A DNA stretch of 32,000 bases, taken from Kiritimatiella glycovorans. GTDB lineage: Bacteria; Verrucomicrobiota; Kiritimatiellia; Kiritimatiellales; Kiritimatiellaceae. Positions within the stretch are counted from its first letter, which is position 1, and each line of letters begins with the position of its first letter. Positions 17,309-23,365 of the stretch are shown here, piece by piece. The translations under genes were made by a program, and so were the position numbers. The notes under the pieces are model-generated. The model saw nothing but the letters and a program-made list of their open reading frames with translations, made no database searches and was not told the origin of the DNA. The DNA lies in contig NZ_CP010904.1 in NCBI RefSeq assembly GCF_001017655.1, positions 2,100,001-2,132,000 of the forward strand, given 5' to 3'.

Positions 17309-18106
17309 TCAGGCCTGCCGCATGCATTCCACGGCATTGAGAAAAAGCTTGAGTCCCTCCCCGTATTCCGGAAACCGCCCCTCACCCTTCCTGTGATCCC
17401 AGCGCGGATGGTTCTCCGGGAAAAGGTACGCTTCGGGGTGCGGCATGAGGCCGAAGAGGCGGCCGGTCGGATCGCAGAGTCCGGCGATGGCGTTCAGCGA
17501 CCCGTTTGGATTGGCGGGATAGTCCTGCGCCGGCCGGCCTTCGGCGTCCGCGTAGCGCACCGGCACGCAGCCCGCCTTTTCGATCCCCTCCAGCACCGCG
17601 GCGTCCGGCGTGAAGACCTTGCCCTCGCCGTGGCGGATCGGCAATTCCATGCGTTCCAGCCCGCGCGTGAAGACGCACGGCGAGTCCGGCTCGAACCGCA
17701 GGTCGACCCAGTAGTTCTGAAAATGGCCGCAGTCGTTGCGCATCACGGTGACCGACGGGTTGAGCAGCTCGCCGTCGGCGGCCGGGACCAGCCCCATCTT
17801 CGCCATCACCTGAAACCCGTTGCAGACCCCCAGGATCAGGTGACCGTCCTCGACAAACCGTCGCAGCTCGTCGCGCAGGTGATGCCCCACCCGTACCGCC
17901 ATGGCGTGGCCGCTGCTCATGTGGTCGCCGTAGGAGAATCCGCCGATAAACATCAGCGCCCCGAAGTCGTGGATCCGGCCCGGGGCCGCAAGCAGATCGT
18001 TCAGGTGAACCCGGACGGGGCGCGCGCCCGCGCGCTCCCAGGCCAGCGAGGATTCCGCCTCGCAGTTCACGCCGTATCCCGTGATGATCAGTACGCTCGG
18101 GGTCAT
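17309..18106 (-). CDS. purQ: Phosphoribosylformylglycinamidine synthase, glutamine amidotransferase subunit
   Basis: Class I GATase features are the nucleophile elbow GVCNGFQ and the HGEGK histidine motif. The N-terminus LIITGYGVNCE is typical of the FGAM-synthase amidotransferase. Confidence 0.9.
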   Translation of the reverse strand: MTPSVLIITGYGVNCEAESSLAWERAGARPVRVHLNDLLAAPGRIHDFGALMFIGGFSYGDHMSSGHAMAVRVGHHLRDELRRFVEDGHLILGVCNGFQVMAKMGLVPAADGELLNPSVTVMRNDCGHFQNYWVDLRFEPDSPCVFTRGLERMELPIRHGEGKVFTPDAAVLEGIEKAGCVPVRYADAEGRPAQDYPANPNGSLNAIAGLCDPTGRLFGLMPHPEAYLFPENHPRWDHRKGEGRFPEYGEGLKLFLNAVECMRQA

Positions 18107-18303
18107 CGACGTCCCTTCCTGTGCACATGGGGTTTCCGGTCTGTCCGGCGCCGTTCGACGAGTCCGTGTAACGCCCGAAACGTCTCGTTCGCCTCTTCCA
18201 GCCAGTGGAGGCGCTGATCGGGCGTCATCTCGCGGAACCCGGTATGGCCGTCATAATCCTGCGGGCGGGATTCTCTAATGATCCTGACGGTGCGTTCATC
18301 CAT
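18103..18303 (-). CDS. Hypothetical 66-aa protein, partner of the upstream nucleotidyltransferase
   Basis: GGAGG lies 8 nt upstream of the ATG at 18303. The ATG overlaps the upstream stop by 8 nt (ATGGATGA), and the stop overlaps the purQ ATG (ATGA). I do not recognise any family. The track start (TTG at 18333) would overlap the upstream gene by 38 nt. Confidence 0.5.
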   Translation of the reverse strand: MDERTVRIIRESRPQDYDGHTGFREMTPDQRLHWLEEANETFRALHGLVERRRTDRKPHVHRKGRR

Positions 18304-18805
18304 TTTCGCGGCCTCCAGCCAGGAGATGTTCAAGGGCGGCGATATCGAGCAGGTCCTTGTCCCGCGGCGGATCGATGCGCTGCTTCAAAGACAGCAGTCT
18401 GCTCTTTGAGGCTACGCGCACCCTGCGCCCCTCAACATCCACCTCATCCGCATCTTCATCGAAGGCCTCGAAAGACAGCTCCTCCTTCAGAAAAAGGTCG
18501 AGGTGTCGCGCCGGCTCTTTCGGATCGAGAAAACTGAATACCACTGCGTGCTTCTCTTCGACGATCATACGGATGGTCTCCGGATCCAGAAGCGTCTCGG
18601 GCTCAAGGGGCACACGAGGCTTCAGTCCCAGGTCCTCCATCACCTTGATGAACCGTCTCATGTTTCCCTCGGTGAATCGCACGGCGACATCGAGATCAAG
18701 GGTGAACCGCTCGACGCCTTGAAGCACGCAGGCCACGCCCCCGCCGATGACATAGTCGACCTCCGCATCCGATAACGCCAGAATGATGGTGCGAAGGTGT
18801 CTCAT
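18296..18805 (-). CDS. Minimal Pol-beta-superfamily nucleotidyltransferase (169 aa), exact family unresolved
   Basis: The hG[GS]-x(9-13)-Dh[DE]h signature is present as YVIGGGVACVLQGVERFTLDLDV. The C-terminal helix VRVASKSRLLSLKQRIDPPRDKDLLDIAALEHLL is typical of small TA-type and resistance-type NTases. GGAGG lies 7 nt before the ATG at 18805, which overlaps the purL stop (TGATG). Confidence 0.75.
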   Translation of the reverse strand: MRHLRTIILALSDAEVDYVIGGGVACVLQGVERFTLDLDVAVRFTEGNMRRFIKVMEDLGLKPRVPLEPETLLDPETIRMIVEEKHAVVFSFLDPKEPARHLDLFLKEELSFEAFDEDADEVDVEGRRVRVASKSRLLSLKQRIDPPRDKDLLDIAALEHLLAGGRENG

Positions 18806-21800
18806 CACACCCCCTCCAGGGTTCCCTTGAACGTCGCGCGCAGGTCTTCGACGTCGGCGTCCATGACGGCCTCGCCGTCGTGGCCGCGCACCGTGAGCCG
18901 CCCGTGGCCGCGCACCGTGCCGATCCGCGCAAACGGCGTGCCGGCGAACCGATCCTTCAAGGCCTCTTCATCCTCCGGCGCGCAGGTGAGCACAAACCGG
19001 CTGTTGGTCTCCGAGAACAGGCGCACGGCGTCGTCGAGTTCACCTTCTACCGGCAGCGCGCCCAGTTCAAGGTCCGCGCCGCAGGCCCCGCCGAGGCATC
19101 CCATGACCAGCGCGAGCGCGAGCCCCCCCCGGGCCGGCGTGGTCGCGGAACGGAGCAGCCCGGATTCCGCCGCACGGTGAACGGCCTCAAACCGCCTCCA
19201 GGCGGACGCCGGATCCACGCCGGGGGCGCGGCCCCCGCAGGCCAGCGGCGACCCGGCATCGGCGGCCAGCGACCGCGCCCACGCCGAGGCCCCGGTCTCG
19301 TCCATCGTCACGCCGGCGACGAAGATCGCGTCGCCGGCCCGTTTGAACGGGGTGGTCACCGCGGTGCGCACGTCATCGATCTGCCCCAGCGCCGAGATCA
19401 GCAGCGTCGGCGGGATGGAGATTTTGCGGCCGCCACGGGTGGAGTCGTTCTTCATGCTGTCCTTACCCGAGATGAGCGGCGTACCCCACGCGGTGCAGAG
19501 GTCGTAGAGCGCGCGGTTCGAGCGCACGAGCTGCGCCATTTTATAGGCGCCGTCGGGCGTCTTTTCGGATTCGACCGGGTCGGGCCAGCAGAAGTTATCC
19601 AGCAGCGCGATGCGGTCCGGCCGCGCGCCCGCGGCCACCGCCCGGCGCACCGCCTCGTCCACGACGGATACCGTCATCGCATACGTATCGAGATCGGAAA
19701 GCCACGGATGAATGCCCTCGGAGAGGACGATGCCGCGGTCGGAGTCATAGCGCACACGCAGTACGGTGGCATCGGAGGGCGTGTCGGCGCAGACACCCAT
19801 GAACGGCTTGACGACGCTCAGACCCTTCACCTCGCCGTCGTACATGCGCGACTTGTATTCGCGCGAACACTGGTTCAGATCGGCGAGCACGCGCTTCAGG
19901 CGCGGCGTCAGATCGCGTTCCTCGGGCCGCGGCGGCGCGGAGATCTCCGGCGTCGTCCAGCGCGCGGGAATCGTCATGCGCGGGCAGCCCGATTCGTAGA
20001 GAAAATCCATGTCCAGCGACGCCACCGTCTCACCCCGCCACATCACCGTGAAGTAGCCATCGTCCGTGAACGCCCCCATGACGGCCAGCTCGACATCGCG
20101 CCGCCGCGCCAGCTCGAGCAGTTCATCTCTGTGTTCGGGGGACACGGCGAGCGTCATCCGCTCCTGCGCCTCGGAGAGCAGGATCTCCCAGGGCTGCAGT
20201 CCCTCGTACTTGAGCGGGGCGTCGGCCAGCTCGCAGCGGCAGCCGCCGCTGAGCCGACCCATCTCGCCGAACGAACAGCTTATGCCGCCCGCCCCGTTGT
20301 CGGTGATGCAGCGGTACAGTCCGCGATCGCGCGCCTCGAGCAGAAACTCGTACAGCTTGCGCTGCGTAAGCGGGTCGCCGATCTGCACGGCCTGGGCGGG
20401 CGACTCCATCCGCAATTCCTCGGAGGAAAACGTGGCCCCGTGGATCCCGTCCTTGCCGATCCGTCCGCCGCACATCACCACCAGGTCGCCGGGCTCGACC
20501 TCCTTGCGCTCGGCCGGCCCACCGGCGACCTCCACCGGGGTCACGCCCACGGTCCCGCAGTACACGAGCGGCTTGCCGAGATACCGTTCGTCGAAACACT
20601 CGAATCCGCGGCTCCAGGGGATGCCGCTCTGGTTGCCGCCGTCGATCACGCCCTGGTGCACGCCGTCGCGGATGCGGCGCGGGTGCATCAGGCCCTCCGG
20701 AAGCTCGCCGTCAAAGAACGGCGATCCGAGACAATAGCCCCACACGTTGGTCAGCAGCGCACACCCCATCCCGGTACCCATCGGGTCGCGGTTCACGCCC
20801 ACGATCCCGGTCATCGCCCCGCCGTAGGGATCGAGGGCGGAGGGGCTATTGTGCGTCTCCACCTTGTAGGCCACGTGGACCTCGTCGTCGAACCGCACGA
20901 TCCCCGCGTTGTCGGAGAACACCGAGACCAGCCAGTCGGCGCGCTCGGCCACCTTTTCGGTCGCGGCGCGGATGTACGTCTTGAACAGCGAGCGGATGTG
21001 CTCCTCCTCGCCCGTCTCCTCGTCGCGATACTCCACCTCGGCCGCGAAGATCTTATGGAAGCAGTGCTCCGACCAGGTCTGGGCGATGCACTCCAGTTCG
21101 ACGTCGGTCGGCCAGTCGGGGAGGCCGAGTTCACGGCGGTGGGCGCGTACGGGCTCACTGAGGTAGTGGTCGCGCACCGAGCGCATCTCTGCGAGGCTCA
21201 TCGAGAGGATCCCCTCGCGGGAGATCCGCATCAGGTCCTCGTCATCGCCGGACAGATCGAACGTATGGACCTCGAGGGCGGGACGGTCGGTGAAGACCGG
21301 CACCGAGCGGTCGATGTCCGAGTTCACCCATTCCTGCCGGCTGAACACGCGCACGTCCTGGATCAGCGGATTGGCGAGCAGATCGCGGCCGAGATGTTCC
21401 GCGTCGCCGCGTTCGAGCGCCCCCCACAGAAAGACCTGCCGCGAGGTGAACACCTGTTCGCGCCAGTCCAGTTCCCGCTCGATCAGGTCTTCGAGCACGC
21501 AGCGGGCCGTGCGCCCGACGTTGTCGGTCACGCCGGGCTTGTAGCCGATCTCGATCAGCCAGTCGAACCCCTCCGGCGACGGAAGACGGTCGAGCGCCGT
21601 CTCGGCCACCACGGGGTCGCCGAAGGCCGCGCGGACCATCCCGGCGCGATCCGGGTCCAGTTCGGCGCGGATGCGGTAGACCTCCCGGCACCGGCAGCGC
21701 CGCACGTCGAATCCGAACCACTGCCGGGCCTGGGCTGCGATCCCCTGACCCGCCGCGTCCGGAACCTCTTCCCTGAGTCCCGCCTCGATGCGTACCGTCT

Positions 21801-21810
21801 GTTCGGTCAC
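18805..21810 (-). CDS. purL: Phosphoribosylformylglycinamidine synthase subunit PurL with an N-terminal PurS-like extension
   Basis: PurL/AIR-synthase-like motifs are VETHNSPSALDPYGGAMTGIVGVNRD and TDNGAGGISCSFGEM. The start is taken as GTG at 21810, preceded by AGGAG with a 6-nt spacer. The track's ATG at 21978 would overlap the upstream GT gene by 107 nt. Confidence 0.92.
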   Translation of the reverse strand: MTEQTVRIEAGLREEVPDAAGQGIAAQARQWFGFDVRRCRCREVYRIRAELDPDRAGMVRAAFGDPVVAETALDRLPSPEGFDWLIEIGYKPGVTDNVGRTARCVLEDLIERELDWREQVFTSRQVFLWGALERGDAEHLGRDLLANPLIQDVRVFSRQEWVNSDIDRSVPVFTDRPALEVHTFDLSGDDEDLMRISREGILSMSLAEMRSVRDHYLSEPVRAHRRELGLPDWPTDVELECIAQTWSEHCFHKIFAAEVEYRDEETGEEEHIRSLFKTYIRAATEKVAERADWLVSVFSDNAGIVRFDDEVHVAYKVETHNSPSALDPYGGAMTGIVGVNRDPMGTGMGCALLTNVWGYCLGSPFFDGELPEGLMHPRRIRDGVHQGVIDGGNQSGIPWSRGFECFDERYLGKPLVYCGTVGVTPVEVAGGPAERKEVEPGDLVVMCGGRIGKDGIHGATFSSEELRMESPAQAVQIGDPLTQRKLYEFLLEARDRGLYRCITDNGAGGISCSFGEMGRLSGGCRCELADAPLKYEGLQPWEILLSEAQERMTLAVSPEHRDELLELARRRDVELAVMGAFTDDGYFTVMWRGETVASLDMDFLYESGCPRMTIPARWTTPEISAPPRPEERDLTPRLKRVLADLNQCSREYKSRMYDGEVKGLSVVKPFMGVCADTPSDATVLRVRYDSDRGIVLSEGIHPWLSDLDTYAMTVSVVDEAVRRAVAAGARPDRIALLDNFCWPDPVESEKTPDGAYKMAQLVRSNRALYDLCTAWGTPLISGKDSMKNDSTRGGRKISIPPTLLISALGQIDDVRTAVTTPFKRAGDAIFVAGVTMDETGASAWARSLAADAGSPLACGGRAPGVDPASAWRRFEAVHRAAESGLLRSATTPARGGLALALVMGCLGGACGADLELGALPVEGELDDAVRLFSETNSRFVLTCAPEDEEALKDRFAGTPFARIGTVRGHGRLTVRGHDGEAVMDADVEDLRATFKGTLEGV

Positions 21811-21871
21811 GTCCTGCTCCTGTCGCCAAAACGTACAGAATATCCGCGATGCCGGACGGGGCCAAGACGAT

Positions 21872-23365
21872 TCACTCCGCTTCCCCGGCCACCAGGAGTT
21901 CGACCCGGTGAAATCCGCGTCCCGCCGGCTCGAGTCCGCCGTAGATCTCTCCGAACAGGCGACGGTAGTCGTCCTCATGCCCGCGCGGGTGGCTGATCAT
22001 GAGCACCACGCTATCCGCCTGACGCAGGTCCGGGCAGGCCTCGAACAGTGACTCGCGTGCATCGATGCGGCGGTCGGGCAGTCCGGTAAGTTCGAGTTCC
22101 GGTGCGTAGAATCCGAGCGGAAGCGTCATGTAATCGCAGTAGACGGCCACGGCGTCGGGATCGATCGCGCGCAGTTCCGCCGCCACGGCGCGCCAGTCGG
22201 GTTGCGCCCGCGCCTCCGCGCGCGCGACGCGCACGAGGCCCGCCGTATTGACCGCCAGGAACAGGGCCGCGGCCGCGAAGATCAGGGGACGCGCCCTTCC
22301 CCGCGCCAGCGTCAGTCCCGCGGCCAGCGGGACGAACAGCGCCGGAGCGCCGGCGGCGACGTAGCGGGTGTCGTCGTAGAGCCCTTCCATCCGGAAGGAG
22401 GCCAGCCAGACGAGCACGAGCGGCGCGGCCAGCAGCACGGCCGCGCAGACGACGGGCGCGGCGGCGGCGCGTTCGCCGCGCCGCCGCCACAGCACACCCA
22501 GCGCCGCGAGGGGAAAGAGCGCCAGCAGCAGCCCCGGGATTGCGGCGCGGAGCGCCTCCGCGCGCCCCGCGAGTTCGACCAGCCCGTGTCCCCCCGCAAA
22601 AGCGAAGAACGTGAAGGGGATAACAAGTCCCGTGGAGGGGTACCAGGCGCTCCCCCCGCCCTTCGCCGCCGCCTGCAGCAGGAAGCCGGTCAGCCAGTAG
22701 GCGTACAGTCCGGCGAGCACCAGCCCCGCCGCGCCCCAGCGCGGCCAGGCGCGGGGGCGAAAGGCCGCCAGACACGCCCACGCACAGGCGGCGTAGACGA
22801 TCCCGAGGTAATGACTCGCCATCGTGAACCACCCCGCGAGCACGAGCCCGGTCAACGCCCCGGCGCGTGGACGGTCGTCGCGCAGGCACCTGAACAGAAA
22901 GAAGAGGAGCCAAGCCCCGCCGCACTCCAGCAGGGCGTACATGCGTGCCTCGCGGGCCAGCAGCACGGAGTATACGCTCAGCGCGGCCAGCAGCCCCGCT
23001 GCCAAACCGGCCCGCCGGCCCGCCCACGCGCGGGCGGCGGCCATCACCCCCGCCACCCCGGCCAGGCTGACGAGCACCGTCATCGCACGCAACGCCGTCT
23101 CCCGCGTGGCGCCCGACGATTCGAGCAGGGCGTATCCGCTGCGCAGCCACCCCCAGGTCATCGTGTAAAACAGCGTGGGGTGCGGCTCGCTGCGGTTGAC
23201 CTCGGAGAGCGGATCGAACACCTGCCGCAGGGAGGCGCGCTCCGCGAAGCGGAATGAATAGGCCTCGTCGAGATTGAACGTCCGCGCAGGCAGATTCCAC
23301 AGGCGCGGGAGCAGCGCCAGCAGCAGACAGAGTATCCATCCCGCGATCTCGACGCGTCGGCTCAT
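21872..23365 (-). CDS. Integral-membrane glycosyltransferase, family 39 / ArnT-PMT-like
   Basis: About 10 or more hydrophobic segments are present. The N-terminal loop NLDEAYSFRFA...SEPHPTLFYTMTWGW is typical of ArnT-like enzymes. GGGAGGG lies 5 nt upstream of the ATG. Confidence 0.8.
   Translation of the reverse strand: MSRRVEIAGWILCLLLALLPRLWNLPARTFNLDEAYSFRFAERASLRQVFDPLSEVNRSEPHPTLFYTMTWGWLRSGYALLESSGATRETALRAMTVLVSLAGVAGVMAAARAWAGRRAGLAAGLLAALSVYSVLLAREARMYALLECGGAWLLFFLFRCLRDDRPRAGALTGLVLAGWFTMASHYLGIVYAACAWACLAAFRPRAWPRWGAAGLVLAGLYAYWLTGFLLQAAAKGGGSAWYPSTGLVIPFTFFAFAGGHGLVELAGRAEALRAAIPGLLLALFPLAALGVLWRRRGERAAAAPVVCAAVLLAAPLVLVWLASFRMEGLYDDTRYVAAGAPALFVPLAAGLTLARGRARPLIFAAAALFLAVNTAGLVRVARAEARAQPDWRAVAAELRAIDPDAVAVYCDYMTLPLGFYAPELELTGLPDRRIDARESLFEACPDLRQADSVVLMISHPRGHEDDYRRLFGEIYGGLEPAGRGFHRVELLVAGEAE

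Follow-up and report, generated by a model that had tools for sequence, protein, structure and literature searches.

In a 32,000-nucleotide (nt) stretch of the Kiritimatiella glycovorans genome (contig NZ_CP010904.1, positions 2,100,001 to 2,132,000; hereafter the window), the purine-biosynthesis genes purL and purQ are separated by a two-gene cassette encoding a 169-amino acid nucleotidyltransferase (NTase) followed by a 66-amino acid protein, here termed the partner. On balance, we favor the reading of this cassette as a toxin–antitoxin (TA) module resembling MenAT1 of Mycobacterium tuberculosis, with an antitoxin from a new family and a toxin-first gene order; toxicity, the target, physical binding, and co-transcription are inferred. 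A first-pass annotation made from the letters of the window had already proposed either an addiction/defense pair or a nucleotidylylating regulator, and of these the TA-type suggestion fits best, given the AbiEii/MenT-type features of the NTase and the MNT–HEPN and BrnT pairs found at the equivalent junction in relatives.

The strictness of the pairing provided the first line of evidence. The NTase and the partner are kept as an adjacent pair in ~40 genomes with differing flanking genes, as would be expected of the self-contained two-gene module that had been proposed. With the genes of related loci assigned through cross-locus clustering, Pfam scans, and pre-called genes, the partner was observed directly 3′ of the NTase and on the same strand in every inspected locus with an intact NTase of the family, its start mostly overlapping the NTase stop by 4, 8, 11, or 14 nt. 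The divergent Fibrobacterota loci also carry the partner, and no intact family NTase lacking it was found among the inspected loci, the sole partner-less relative (L047) being a distant homolog that aligned over its N-terminus only. Additionally, the distances among NTases and among partners were correlated across 38 loci (Mantel r of 0.50, reached by 0 of 2000 permutations), so the pair forms a single unit of inheritance.

The second line of evidence comes from loci in which the pair has decayed, most of which are metagenome bins. A damaged NTase stands beside an intact partner in five of them: a 1-nt deletion fuses the NTase and partner frames in L034, where the invariant D103 is also changed to Val; a frameshift destroys motifs III and IV in L036; an in-frame deletion between two sites encoding LDIA was found in both L046 and L048; and the NTase of L050 is truncated after 33 codons. 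Such one-sided decay is predicted if the NTase acts as the toxin and the small protein as the antitoxin, and it argues against the reversed roles. Both genes have decayed in L042, and L049 holds a truncated NTase remnant alone, with no recognizable partner. L034 and L036 were also considered as natural fusions showing physical interaction, a candidate that was rejected, as these are single-base frameshifts that damage NTase motifs too. The NTase remnant of L046 and L048 spans ~53 codons (L046:5992-6153 and L048:5998-6156), and the two LDIA-coding sites share ~10 nt of microhomology in the intact relative L132; between these two loci dN/dS is 0.21 for the small ORF (open reading frame) and about 0.08 for the remnant, a low value that suggests either that such deletions are recent and have recurred or that the remnant works as a mini-peptide. 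Orphan second copies of the partner were also observed a few hundred bases 3′ of the cassette in Chthoniobacterales/Udaeobacter-type loci (L027:6998-7258 and L034:1472-1708).

The assignment of roles needs to be weighed against the type VII MntA/HepT (MNT–HEPN) systems, in which the NTase is the antitoxin and its partner is a HEPN RNase of ~130 amino acids. These systems share with the K. glycovorans cassette a two-gene layout, a minimal NTase, and overlapping genes, and one MNT–HEPN pair lies at the equivalent purL junction of a relative (L055). Transferred to the cassette, this arrangement would have the NTase nucleotidylylating a toxic small protein, for which the conserved Thr and His of the partner could serve as nucleotide acceptors, and the NTase gene coming first would be in line with it. 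We nonetheless hold reversed roles to be highly improbable, since five loci that have lost NTase function retain an intact partner that would be lethal or strongly counter-selected if toxic. The NTase motifs are those of AbiEii/MenT, not of MntA, the protein belonging to another subfamily with no match to PF18765 (Polbeta) in the Pfam search, and the partner is a hydrophilic 66-amino acid helix in which neither Pfam nor the AlphaFold 2 (AF2) model revealed HEPN or nuclease features, in agreement with the earlier remark that it is too short for a HEPN domain.

The NTase, which is 100% identical to a hypothetical protein of K. glycovorans, retrieved 169 homologous proteins of ~165 amino acids at 50–65% identity, the named ones mostly from Kiritimatiellales, Pontiella, and Opitutaceae. 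The alignment of 24 family members displayed 37 invariant columns and the GGG-x13-DLD signature noted in the first-pass annotation was recovered at residues 21–39 (G21-G22-G23, 13 residues, and D37-L-D39). Four motifs have been defined in the AbiEii/DUF1814 family by Dy et al. 2014 (PMC3985639): motifs I and II consist of hG[G/S] and then DhD, with an arginine in motif II, motif III is KLxAaxxR-like, with a Lys and then an Arg at +7, and motif IV is a +DxxD pentad, the motif II arginine and the pentad being described as AbiEii/DUF1814-specific. Motifs I and II are present in the K. glycovorans protein as I20-G21-G22-G23, R33, T35, and D37-L-D39, of which G22, G23, R33, T35, and D39 are invariant in the 24 homologs, and G21 and D37 are kept in at least 90%. 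R33 precedes the first Asp by four residues, comparable to R63/D67 in AbiEii, with a spacing of 13–14 residues between the two motifs in this family against 15 in AbiEii. Toward the C-terminus, motif III (K141-Q-R-I-D-P-P-R148, with K141 and R148 invariant) and motif IV (K150-D151-L-L-D154, with K150, D151, and D154 invariant) are separated by a narrower gap than in AbiEii. The invariant T35 lies two residues ahead of the first Asp, as does T39 relative to D41 in MenT1 (PMC11375011). Taken by their residues, the C-terminal motifs point to a placement of the NTase on the DUF1814 side.

The AF2 models of both proteins were compared with the PDB using Foldseek. The NTase model (pLDDT 91.2, pTM 0.85) retrieved structures at 13–19% identity and TM scores of about 0.5–0.65, the best match being TM1012, a putative NTase of Thermotoga maritima (2fcl, 2ewr, and 4hx0; E 3.2e-5, TM 0.61–0.65). 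TM1012 has 157–163 residues and its N-terminal motif also aligns in sequence, although identity to the K. glycovorans NTase is just 13–14%. Further matches comprised MenT1 and the MenAT1 complex (8an4 and 8an5; E 3.6e-5 to 1.1e-4, with 8an4_B at E 3.6e-5 and TM 0.62), LnuA (4fo1; E 8.5e-5, TM about 0.6), ANT(2'')-Ia (5cfu and 4wqk; E about 1e-3, TM about 0.6), JHP933 (E 1.2e-3), and MenT3 (8xhr; E 2.7e-3). Judging from the model, the NTase is a minimal two-lobed enzyme of predicted Pol-beta fold, a fold that does not separate toxins from resistance enzymes. It is a divergent member of a known superfamily, already hinted at in databases, with several homologs bearing a precomputed PF08843 match.

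The partner had been described as matching no family, and this held across a wider set of resources: there was no match in Pfam, NCBIfam, or PADLOC, PHROGs gave weak matches to families of unknown function, none of them significant (E 0.059), and a homolog search with the single 66-amino acid sequence returned only itself. A hidden Markov model was then built from the ORFs located just 3′ of homologous NTases in the related loci, and this profile recovered 400 proteins from the clustered database and 428 representatives (50% identity clusters) out of 1.84 billion. Nearly all of the family members among the matches listed were stand-alone proteins of 46–125 amino acids, and no Pfam domain was present in those listed from the clustered-database search. 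The partner ORFs share the core D[YF]DGHTxF..[ML]TPxQRLxWL, which in K. glycovorans reads D16-x-D18-G19-H20-T21-x-F23 and is followed by a long helix; D16, D18, G19, H20, T21, F23, L32, and W34 were invariant among 40 partner sequences. The AF2 model (pLDDT 75.6) starts with a short helix at the N-terminus, continues through the conserved loop into a long helix (residues 28–55), and ends in a disordered tail, and it produced 0 matches in the PDB at E ≤ 10, while the profile of 40 sequences gave only chance-level results against PDB sequences, with MenA1 (a chain of 8an5) absent among the matches. The ratio dN/dS of the partner between pairs of loci ranged from 0.08 to 0.22, which shows that it is a real translated gene under purifying selection; the conservation of the small ORF, which the first-pass annotation had treated as decisive, thus extends over 428 clusters and is accompanied by selection. 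As far as these searches show, the partner family and its pairing with the NTase are undescribed in Pfam, NCBIfam, PADLOC, PHROGs, the PDB, and the literature. Some of the NTase homologs already carry the public annotation "AbiEii/AbiGii toxin family", so novelty is confined to the partner and to its pairing with the NTase.

MenT1 (Rv0078A) of M. tuberculosis is a minimal DUF1814 NTase that adds nucleotides to tRNA and inhibits growth (PMC10435456, PMC11375011), and it is neutralized by MenA1 (Rv0078B), a protein of 68 amino acids that consists of one long helix and a disordered tail and lacks a DNA-binding domain (PMC10435456). MenA1 binds over the active-site face of MenT1 and induces auto-phosphorylation of T39 (PMC10435456, PMC11375011). 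The K. glycovorans cassette resembles this system in its minimal DUF1814-type NTase, to which MenT1 structures are among the best fold matches; in the Thr two residues before the first catalytic Asp, the C-terminal Lys, and the C-terminal Asp; in a partner of ~66–68 amino acids that is dominated by a single long helix, has a disordered tail, and lacks a domain for DNA binding; and in the strict pairing of both genes. It differs in the low identity between the NTases (17–18%) and their size (169 amino acids against 184–195 residues in the matched MenT1 chains), in a partner that is unrelated to MenA1 and has its own invariant DxDGHTxF motif, in its hosts, which are bacteria of the Planctomycetes–Verrucomicrobia–Chlamydiae (PVC) group and not Actinobacteria, and in its location within a biosynthetic operon. 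The likeness to AbiE, a type IV TA and abortive-infection system, lies in NTase motifs I–IV, the arginine of motif II and the +DxxD pentad of motif IV among them, and AbiEii is the commonest Pfam family matched by the NTase family, although the AbiEii Pfam profile spans 238 positions against the 169 amino acids of the K. glycovorans protein. The antitoxin of that system, AbiEi, belongs to COG5340 and has a winged-helix domain for DNA binding; its gene precedes that of the toxin, and no AbiEi-type gene is found at the K. glycovorans cassette. AbiEi is furthermore a two-domain protein (PMC7319586).

By analogy with the MenT toxins, the NTase would add nucleotides to cellular RNA, probably at tRNA 3′ ends, resulting in growth arrest, and the 66-amino acid helical protein would neutralize the enzyme through direct contact with the face that bears its active site; it might in addition cause the NTase to auto-phosphorylate at the conserved Thr35. 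A further and rather doubtful idea is that the DxDGHTxF loop reaches into the catalytic site of the NTase, where it would bind a metal or a nucleotide or else serve as the acceptor (His20/Thr21); the cassette would then be a new kind of protein-regulated or protein-primed switch. As the module has no DNA-binding antitoxin and is translationally coupled to biosynthetic genes in several hosts (purL/purQ here and pabBC in other Kiritimatiellales), its dosage may be set by the host operon; if true, growth arrest in K. glycovorans would be tied to purine-pathway expression or to the supply of nucleoside triphosphates. The MenT/AbiEii NTase toxins are widespread elements of phage defense and growth control, and to our knowledge few TA systems have been experimentally studied in PVC bacteria. 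Three unrelated families of MenT antitoxins are known (PMC11375011); the cassette would add a fourth type, an unnamed family of ~428 clusters with a toxin-first order and an invariant motif, and would thereby extend a diversity that is already recognized.

The genomic contexts of the pair were also surveyed, and they proved to vary from one lineage to another. In Kiritimatiellales and Pontiellaceae the cassette lies directly 5′ of a pabB–pabC fusion gene (pabBC), often overlapping its start, with EamA, prs, Thiamine_BP, or purQ genes farther out; in the Kiritimatiellales loci L003, L005, L006, L009, L138, L139, and L141 it is always immediately 5′ of pabBC, the more distant genes varying from locus to locus. 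It follows menC–menE, at the end of the men operon, in Rariglobus, and lies among WecG, GT2, sugar-transferase, carbamoyltransferase, and ABC-transporter genes (polysaccharide clusters) in Chthoniobacterales and Udaeobacter. An Opitutaceae-like population harbors it in a variable island together with 23S_rRNA_IVP, DUF6036, and Unstab_antitox genes, and one further contig has it between a phosphatase-family (Exo_endo_phos) gene and a hydrolase gene. Sporadic copies are scattered through non-PVC bins assigned to Aliarcobacter, Acetobacteraceae, Prosthecochloris, Polyangiales, Fibrobacterota, Fermentibacteria, and Spirochaetota, and reflect either transfer or mis-binning. The partner products of the Aliarcobacter (L031) and Acetobacteraceae (L032) bins are near-identical to those of the Verrucomicrobia bins L025, L028, and L033, which suggests mis-binning or very recent transfer. 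Two of the neighborhoods contain other minimal NTase genes and look enriched in TA-like genes: a 182-amino acid ORF and a DUF6036 NTase (183 amino acids), then an Unstab_antitox gene, lie near the cassette in L134 (L134:8159-9638), and a 185-amino acid NTP_transf_5/AbiEii-like gene lies 3 kb 5′ of it in Rariglobus (L001:2855-3412).

Several observations, set out in this paragraph and in the next one, weigh against a TA module, beginning with the family assignment of the NTase. Every Pfam family matched by the K. glycovorans protein remained below threshold, and the top single match was to a resistance family, Aminoglyc_resit (PF10706, ANT(2'')), which covered the full length (residues 4–156) at 19.8 bits for a cut-off of 21. 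AbiEii (PF08843) reached 16.8 bits, short of its gathering threshold of 22.5, and DUF2204 and DUF6036 gave 16.1 bits (cut-off 20.3) and 12.5 bits (cut-off 23.6). There was no NCBIfam match, PADLOC returned chance-level results only and no AbiE call, and Foldseek does not set MenT1 apart from TM1012, LnuA, and ANT(2''). The protein might thus be a small-molecule NTase of the ANT(2'')/Lnu type, acting on an antibiotic or metabolite, with the small ORF as an incidental or regulatory neighbor; LnuA and ANT(2'')-Ia, both among the top Foldseek matches, indeed have the same minimal two-lobed architecture and size. These are stand-alone enzymes that confer resistance by acting on small molecules and are often found on mobile elements, and we know of no obligate small partner for either. 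The K. glycovorans family, in contrast, is chromosomal and paired in all intact loci inspected, and it bears DUF1814-type motifs, with both the arginine of motif II and the +DxxD pentad present. When the 24 members were searched against Pfam (E ≤ 0.01), AbiEii was matched by 11 of them (best E 1.2e-5) and DUF2204 by nine, against seven for Aminoglyc_resit, and no resistance genes were seen in the inspected neighborhoods. Together with the lack of plasmid copies described below, this renders a resistance-type enzyme quite improbable.

The remaining objections concern the partner, the gene order, and the distribution. Neither the sequence profile nor Foldseek linked the partner to MenA1 or another known antitoxin, and an invariant polar motif such as its DxDGHT is unusual in a protein that would act as a mere steric plug. 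Here the NTase gene precedes that of the partner, while menA1 lies upstream of menT in MenAT1 (PMC10435456), and the order is likewise reversed relative to AbiE. Metagenome bins are the source of several damaged NTases, and a frameshift in such data can be an assembly error. No copies of the NTase were found on plasmids or phages (tblastn against plasmid and phage collections), the family is well conserved (50–65% identity) and broadly mirrors taxonomy, and synteny is retained within orders, the arrangement NTase, small ORF, and pabBC recurring in at least eight Kiritimatiellales contigs. Such a pattern is less patchy than is typical of TA modules and would also be compatible with an accessory enzyme that has been conserved. 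In such a non-toxic two-component enzyme, the NTase would nucleotidylylate a protein or metabolite, with the partner as an obligate subunit, substrate, or primer (e.g., through His20/Thr21), and the pair would represent a conserved accessory function of Verrucomicrobiota and Kiritimatiellota and not a selfish module. The translational coupling to pabBC in Kiritimatiellales and the polysaccharide clusters of Chthoniobacterales and Udaeobacter would suit this possibility, as would a motif that looks more catalytic, metal-binding, or acceptor-like than plug-like. We regard it as somewhat unlikely, as the contexts taken together (purine, folate, menaquinone, polysaccharide, and small-gene islands) have no functional theme, close relatives do not have the cassette at the purL–purQ junction, and the NTase motifs match a known toxin family. 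An intact, selected partner beside a destroyed NTase in five loci would also be unexpected if the two proteins worked solely in combination, and it is what the TA reading predicts.

Within the window, the four genes follow the order purL, NTase, small ORF, and purQ on the minus strand, all co-directional (Table 1). The purL stop codon TGA (18807-18805) and the NTase ATG (18805-18803) have one A in common within TGATG (18807-18803); the NTase stop codon TGA (18298-18296) lies within ATGGATGA (18303-18296), giving an overlap of 8 nt with the 66-amino acid ORF; and the stop codon of the latter overlaps the purQ ATG in ATGA (18106-18103). Upon re-reading of the sequence, these overlaps and both GGAGG sites turned out to be exactly as first described. 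The consensus scan detected no promoter-like site in the operon and four terminator-like sites, all of them on the opposite strand, which together with the three overlaps suggests co-transcription and translational coupling of the four genes. Given the co-directional placement and the overlap at all three junctions, the module is probably transcribed and translated with the purine operon. Among the Pfam models matched by PurL, AIRS, AIRS_C, and FGAR-AT_linker exceed their cut-offs and PurS is weak, and the NCBIfam equivalog TIGR01736 scored 450.7 bits, below its cut-off of 525.75; the purQ product likewise matches NCBIfam PurQ models below cut-off.

Table 1. Features of the cassette and its flanking genes in the window, and genes found at the corresponding junction in related loci
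Feature	Coordinates	Strand	Evidence
purL (formylglycinamidine ribonucleotide (FGAM) synthase II, PurS-like N-terminal region)	18805-21978	minus	Pfam, NCBIfam
GGAGG Shine-Dalgarno-like site, within purL 3′ end, 7 nt before NTase ATG	18813-18817	minus	sequence
NTase, 169 aa, AbiEii/MenT (DUF1814)-like, proposed toxin	18296-18805	minus	motifs, AF2, Foldseek, Pfam
GGAGG Shine-Dalgarno-like site, within NTase 3′ end, 8 nt before small ORF ATG	18312-18316	minus	sequence
66-aa partner, proposed antitoxin, new family	18103-18303	minus	conservation, dN/dS, AF2
purQ (FGAM synthase glutaminase subunit)	17309-18106	minus	Pfam GATase_5, 270 bits
BrnT toxin and 69-aa downstream ORF, purL–purQ gap	L094:905-1393
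PDDEXK_3 (PD-(D/E)XK) gene, purL–purQ gap	L073:723-1091
PDDEXK_3 (PD-(D/E)XK) gene, purL–purQ gap	L080:1922-2326
23S_rRNA_IVP gene, purL–purQ gap	L091:3787-4287
MNT (Polbeta, 117 aa) and HEPN (128 aa), exactly between purL and pabBC	L055:1549-2390 (metagenome contig Ga0209099_1009077)		Polbeta 27.2 bits, HEPN 79.7 bits

The history of the insertion was addressed through a purQ-anchored metagenome scan, which yielded 80 loci with a PurQ identity of 57–69%, 50 of them with purL upstream. In 38 of these 50, purL abuts purQ (≤20 nt), and none holds the NTase–partner cassette between the two genes; this stands behind the earlier claim that the cassette is an acquired insert, with the reservation that acquired need not mean recent. 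By comparison with these relatives, the K. glycovorans cassette is an insertion into an otherwise contiguous purL–purQ pair. A gap of 131–752 nt separates the two genes in seven loci, some with the inserts listed in Table 1, among them a gene for 23S_rRNA_IVP, a four-helix-bundle protein, and three with no convincing gene (L079, L101, and L130). The remaining five have pabBC between purL and purQ, two of them with extra inserts, namely an acetyl-xylan esterase in L054 and the MNT–HEPN pair in L055. The junction accordingly looks like an insertion hotspot for small TA-type or selfish genes. The occurrence of MNT–HEPN, BrnT, PD-(D/E)XK, 23S_rRNA_IVP, and the present cassette at one boundary suggests that the tightly coupled junctions of essential operons can be safe harbors, in which modules borrow the transcription and translation signals of the host. 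In L055, a duplicate of the initial 33 pabBC codons was also observed 5′ of the insert, which may be the footprint of the insertion mechanism.

The closest homologs of the cassette are all located just 5′ of pabBC, and pabBC lies between purL and purQ in the cassette-less relatives L053, L057, and L062, so the insertion may be old. One locus (L005, on the same contig as L061) exhibits the order NTase, small ORF, pabBC, and purQ, and no pabBC homolog was found in the 32-kb window. A plausible history would be an ancestral purL–cassette–pabBC–purQ arrangement followed by the loss of pabBC in K. glycovorans, in which case the insertion would be old and not recent.

The codon composition of the cassette was in agreement with the bias toward A/T-ending codons reported in the first-pass annotation. 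The NTase and the small ORF have a G+C content at third codon positions (GC3) of 0.688 and 0.687, respectively, compared with 0.78–0.87 in six neighboring genes, and no other called gene of the window falls below 0.76. In 170-codon windows of the neighbors, GC3 averaged 0.856 (standard deviation 0.036, minimum 0.765), which places the NTase at z = −4.7. Across 41 homologous loci, the GC3 of the NTase broadly tracked the host, with extremes of 0.29 (the most AT-rich host) and 0.85 (GC-rich hosts), and in 30 of the 41 it was below the value for the long ORFs at that locus. The dip is therefore partly a family trait and a weak sign of recent transfer that does not by itself date the acquisition; being family-wide, it was rejected as proof of recent transfer.

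Two minor features concern the purL gene itself. Its ORF (1057 amino acids) starts within the 3′ end of an upstream ORF for a 497-amino acid membrane protein (21872-23365), overlapping it by ~100 nt (21872-21978); the initial ~60 residues look non-PurL, and the weak PurS-like region covers residues 142–211. The purL start codon is hence uncertain, the true one probably lying farther downstream, before the weak PurS-like region. Concerning repeats or target-site duplications flanking the cassette, only short matches were found, probably by chance, such as a 13-nt pair at 18101-18113 and 18843-18855. A perfect 17-nt direct repeat with 24-nt spacing (window positions 18879-18919) is located in the 3′ end of purL and encodes a tandem duplication in the PurL C-terminus (..TVRGHGRLTVRGHD..) ~25 codons ahead of the stop.

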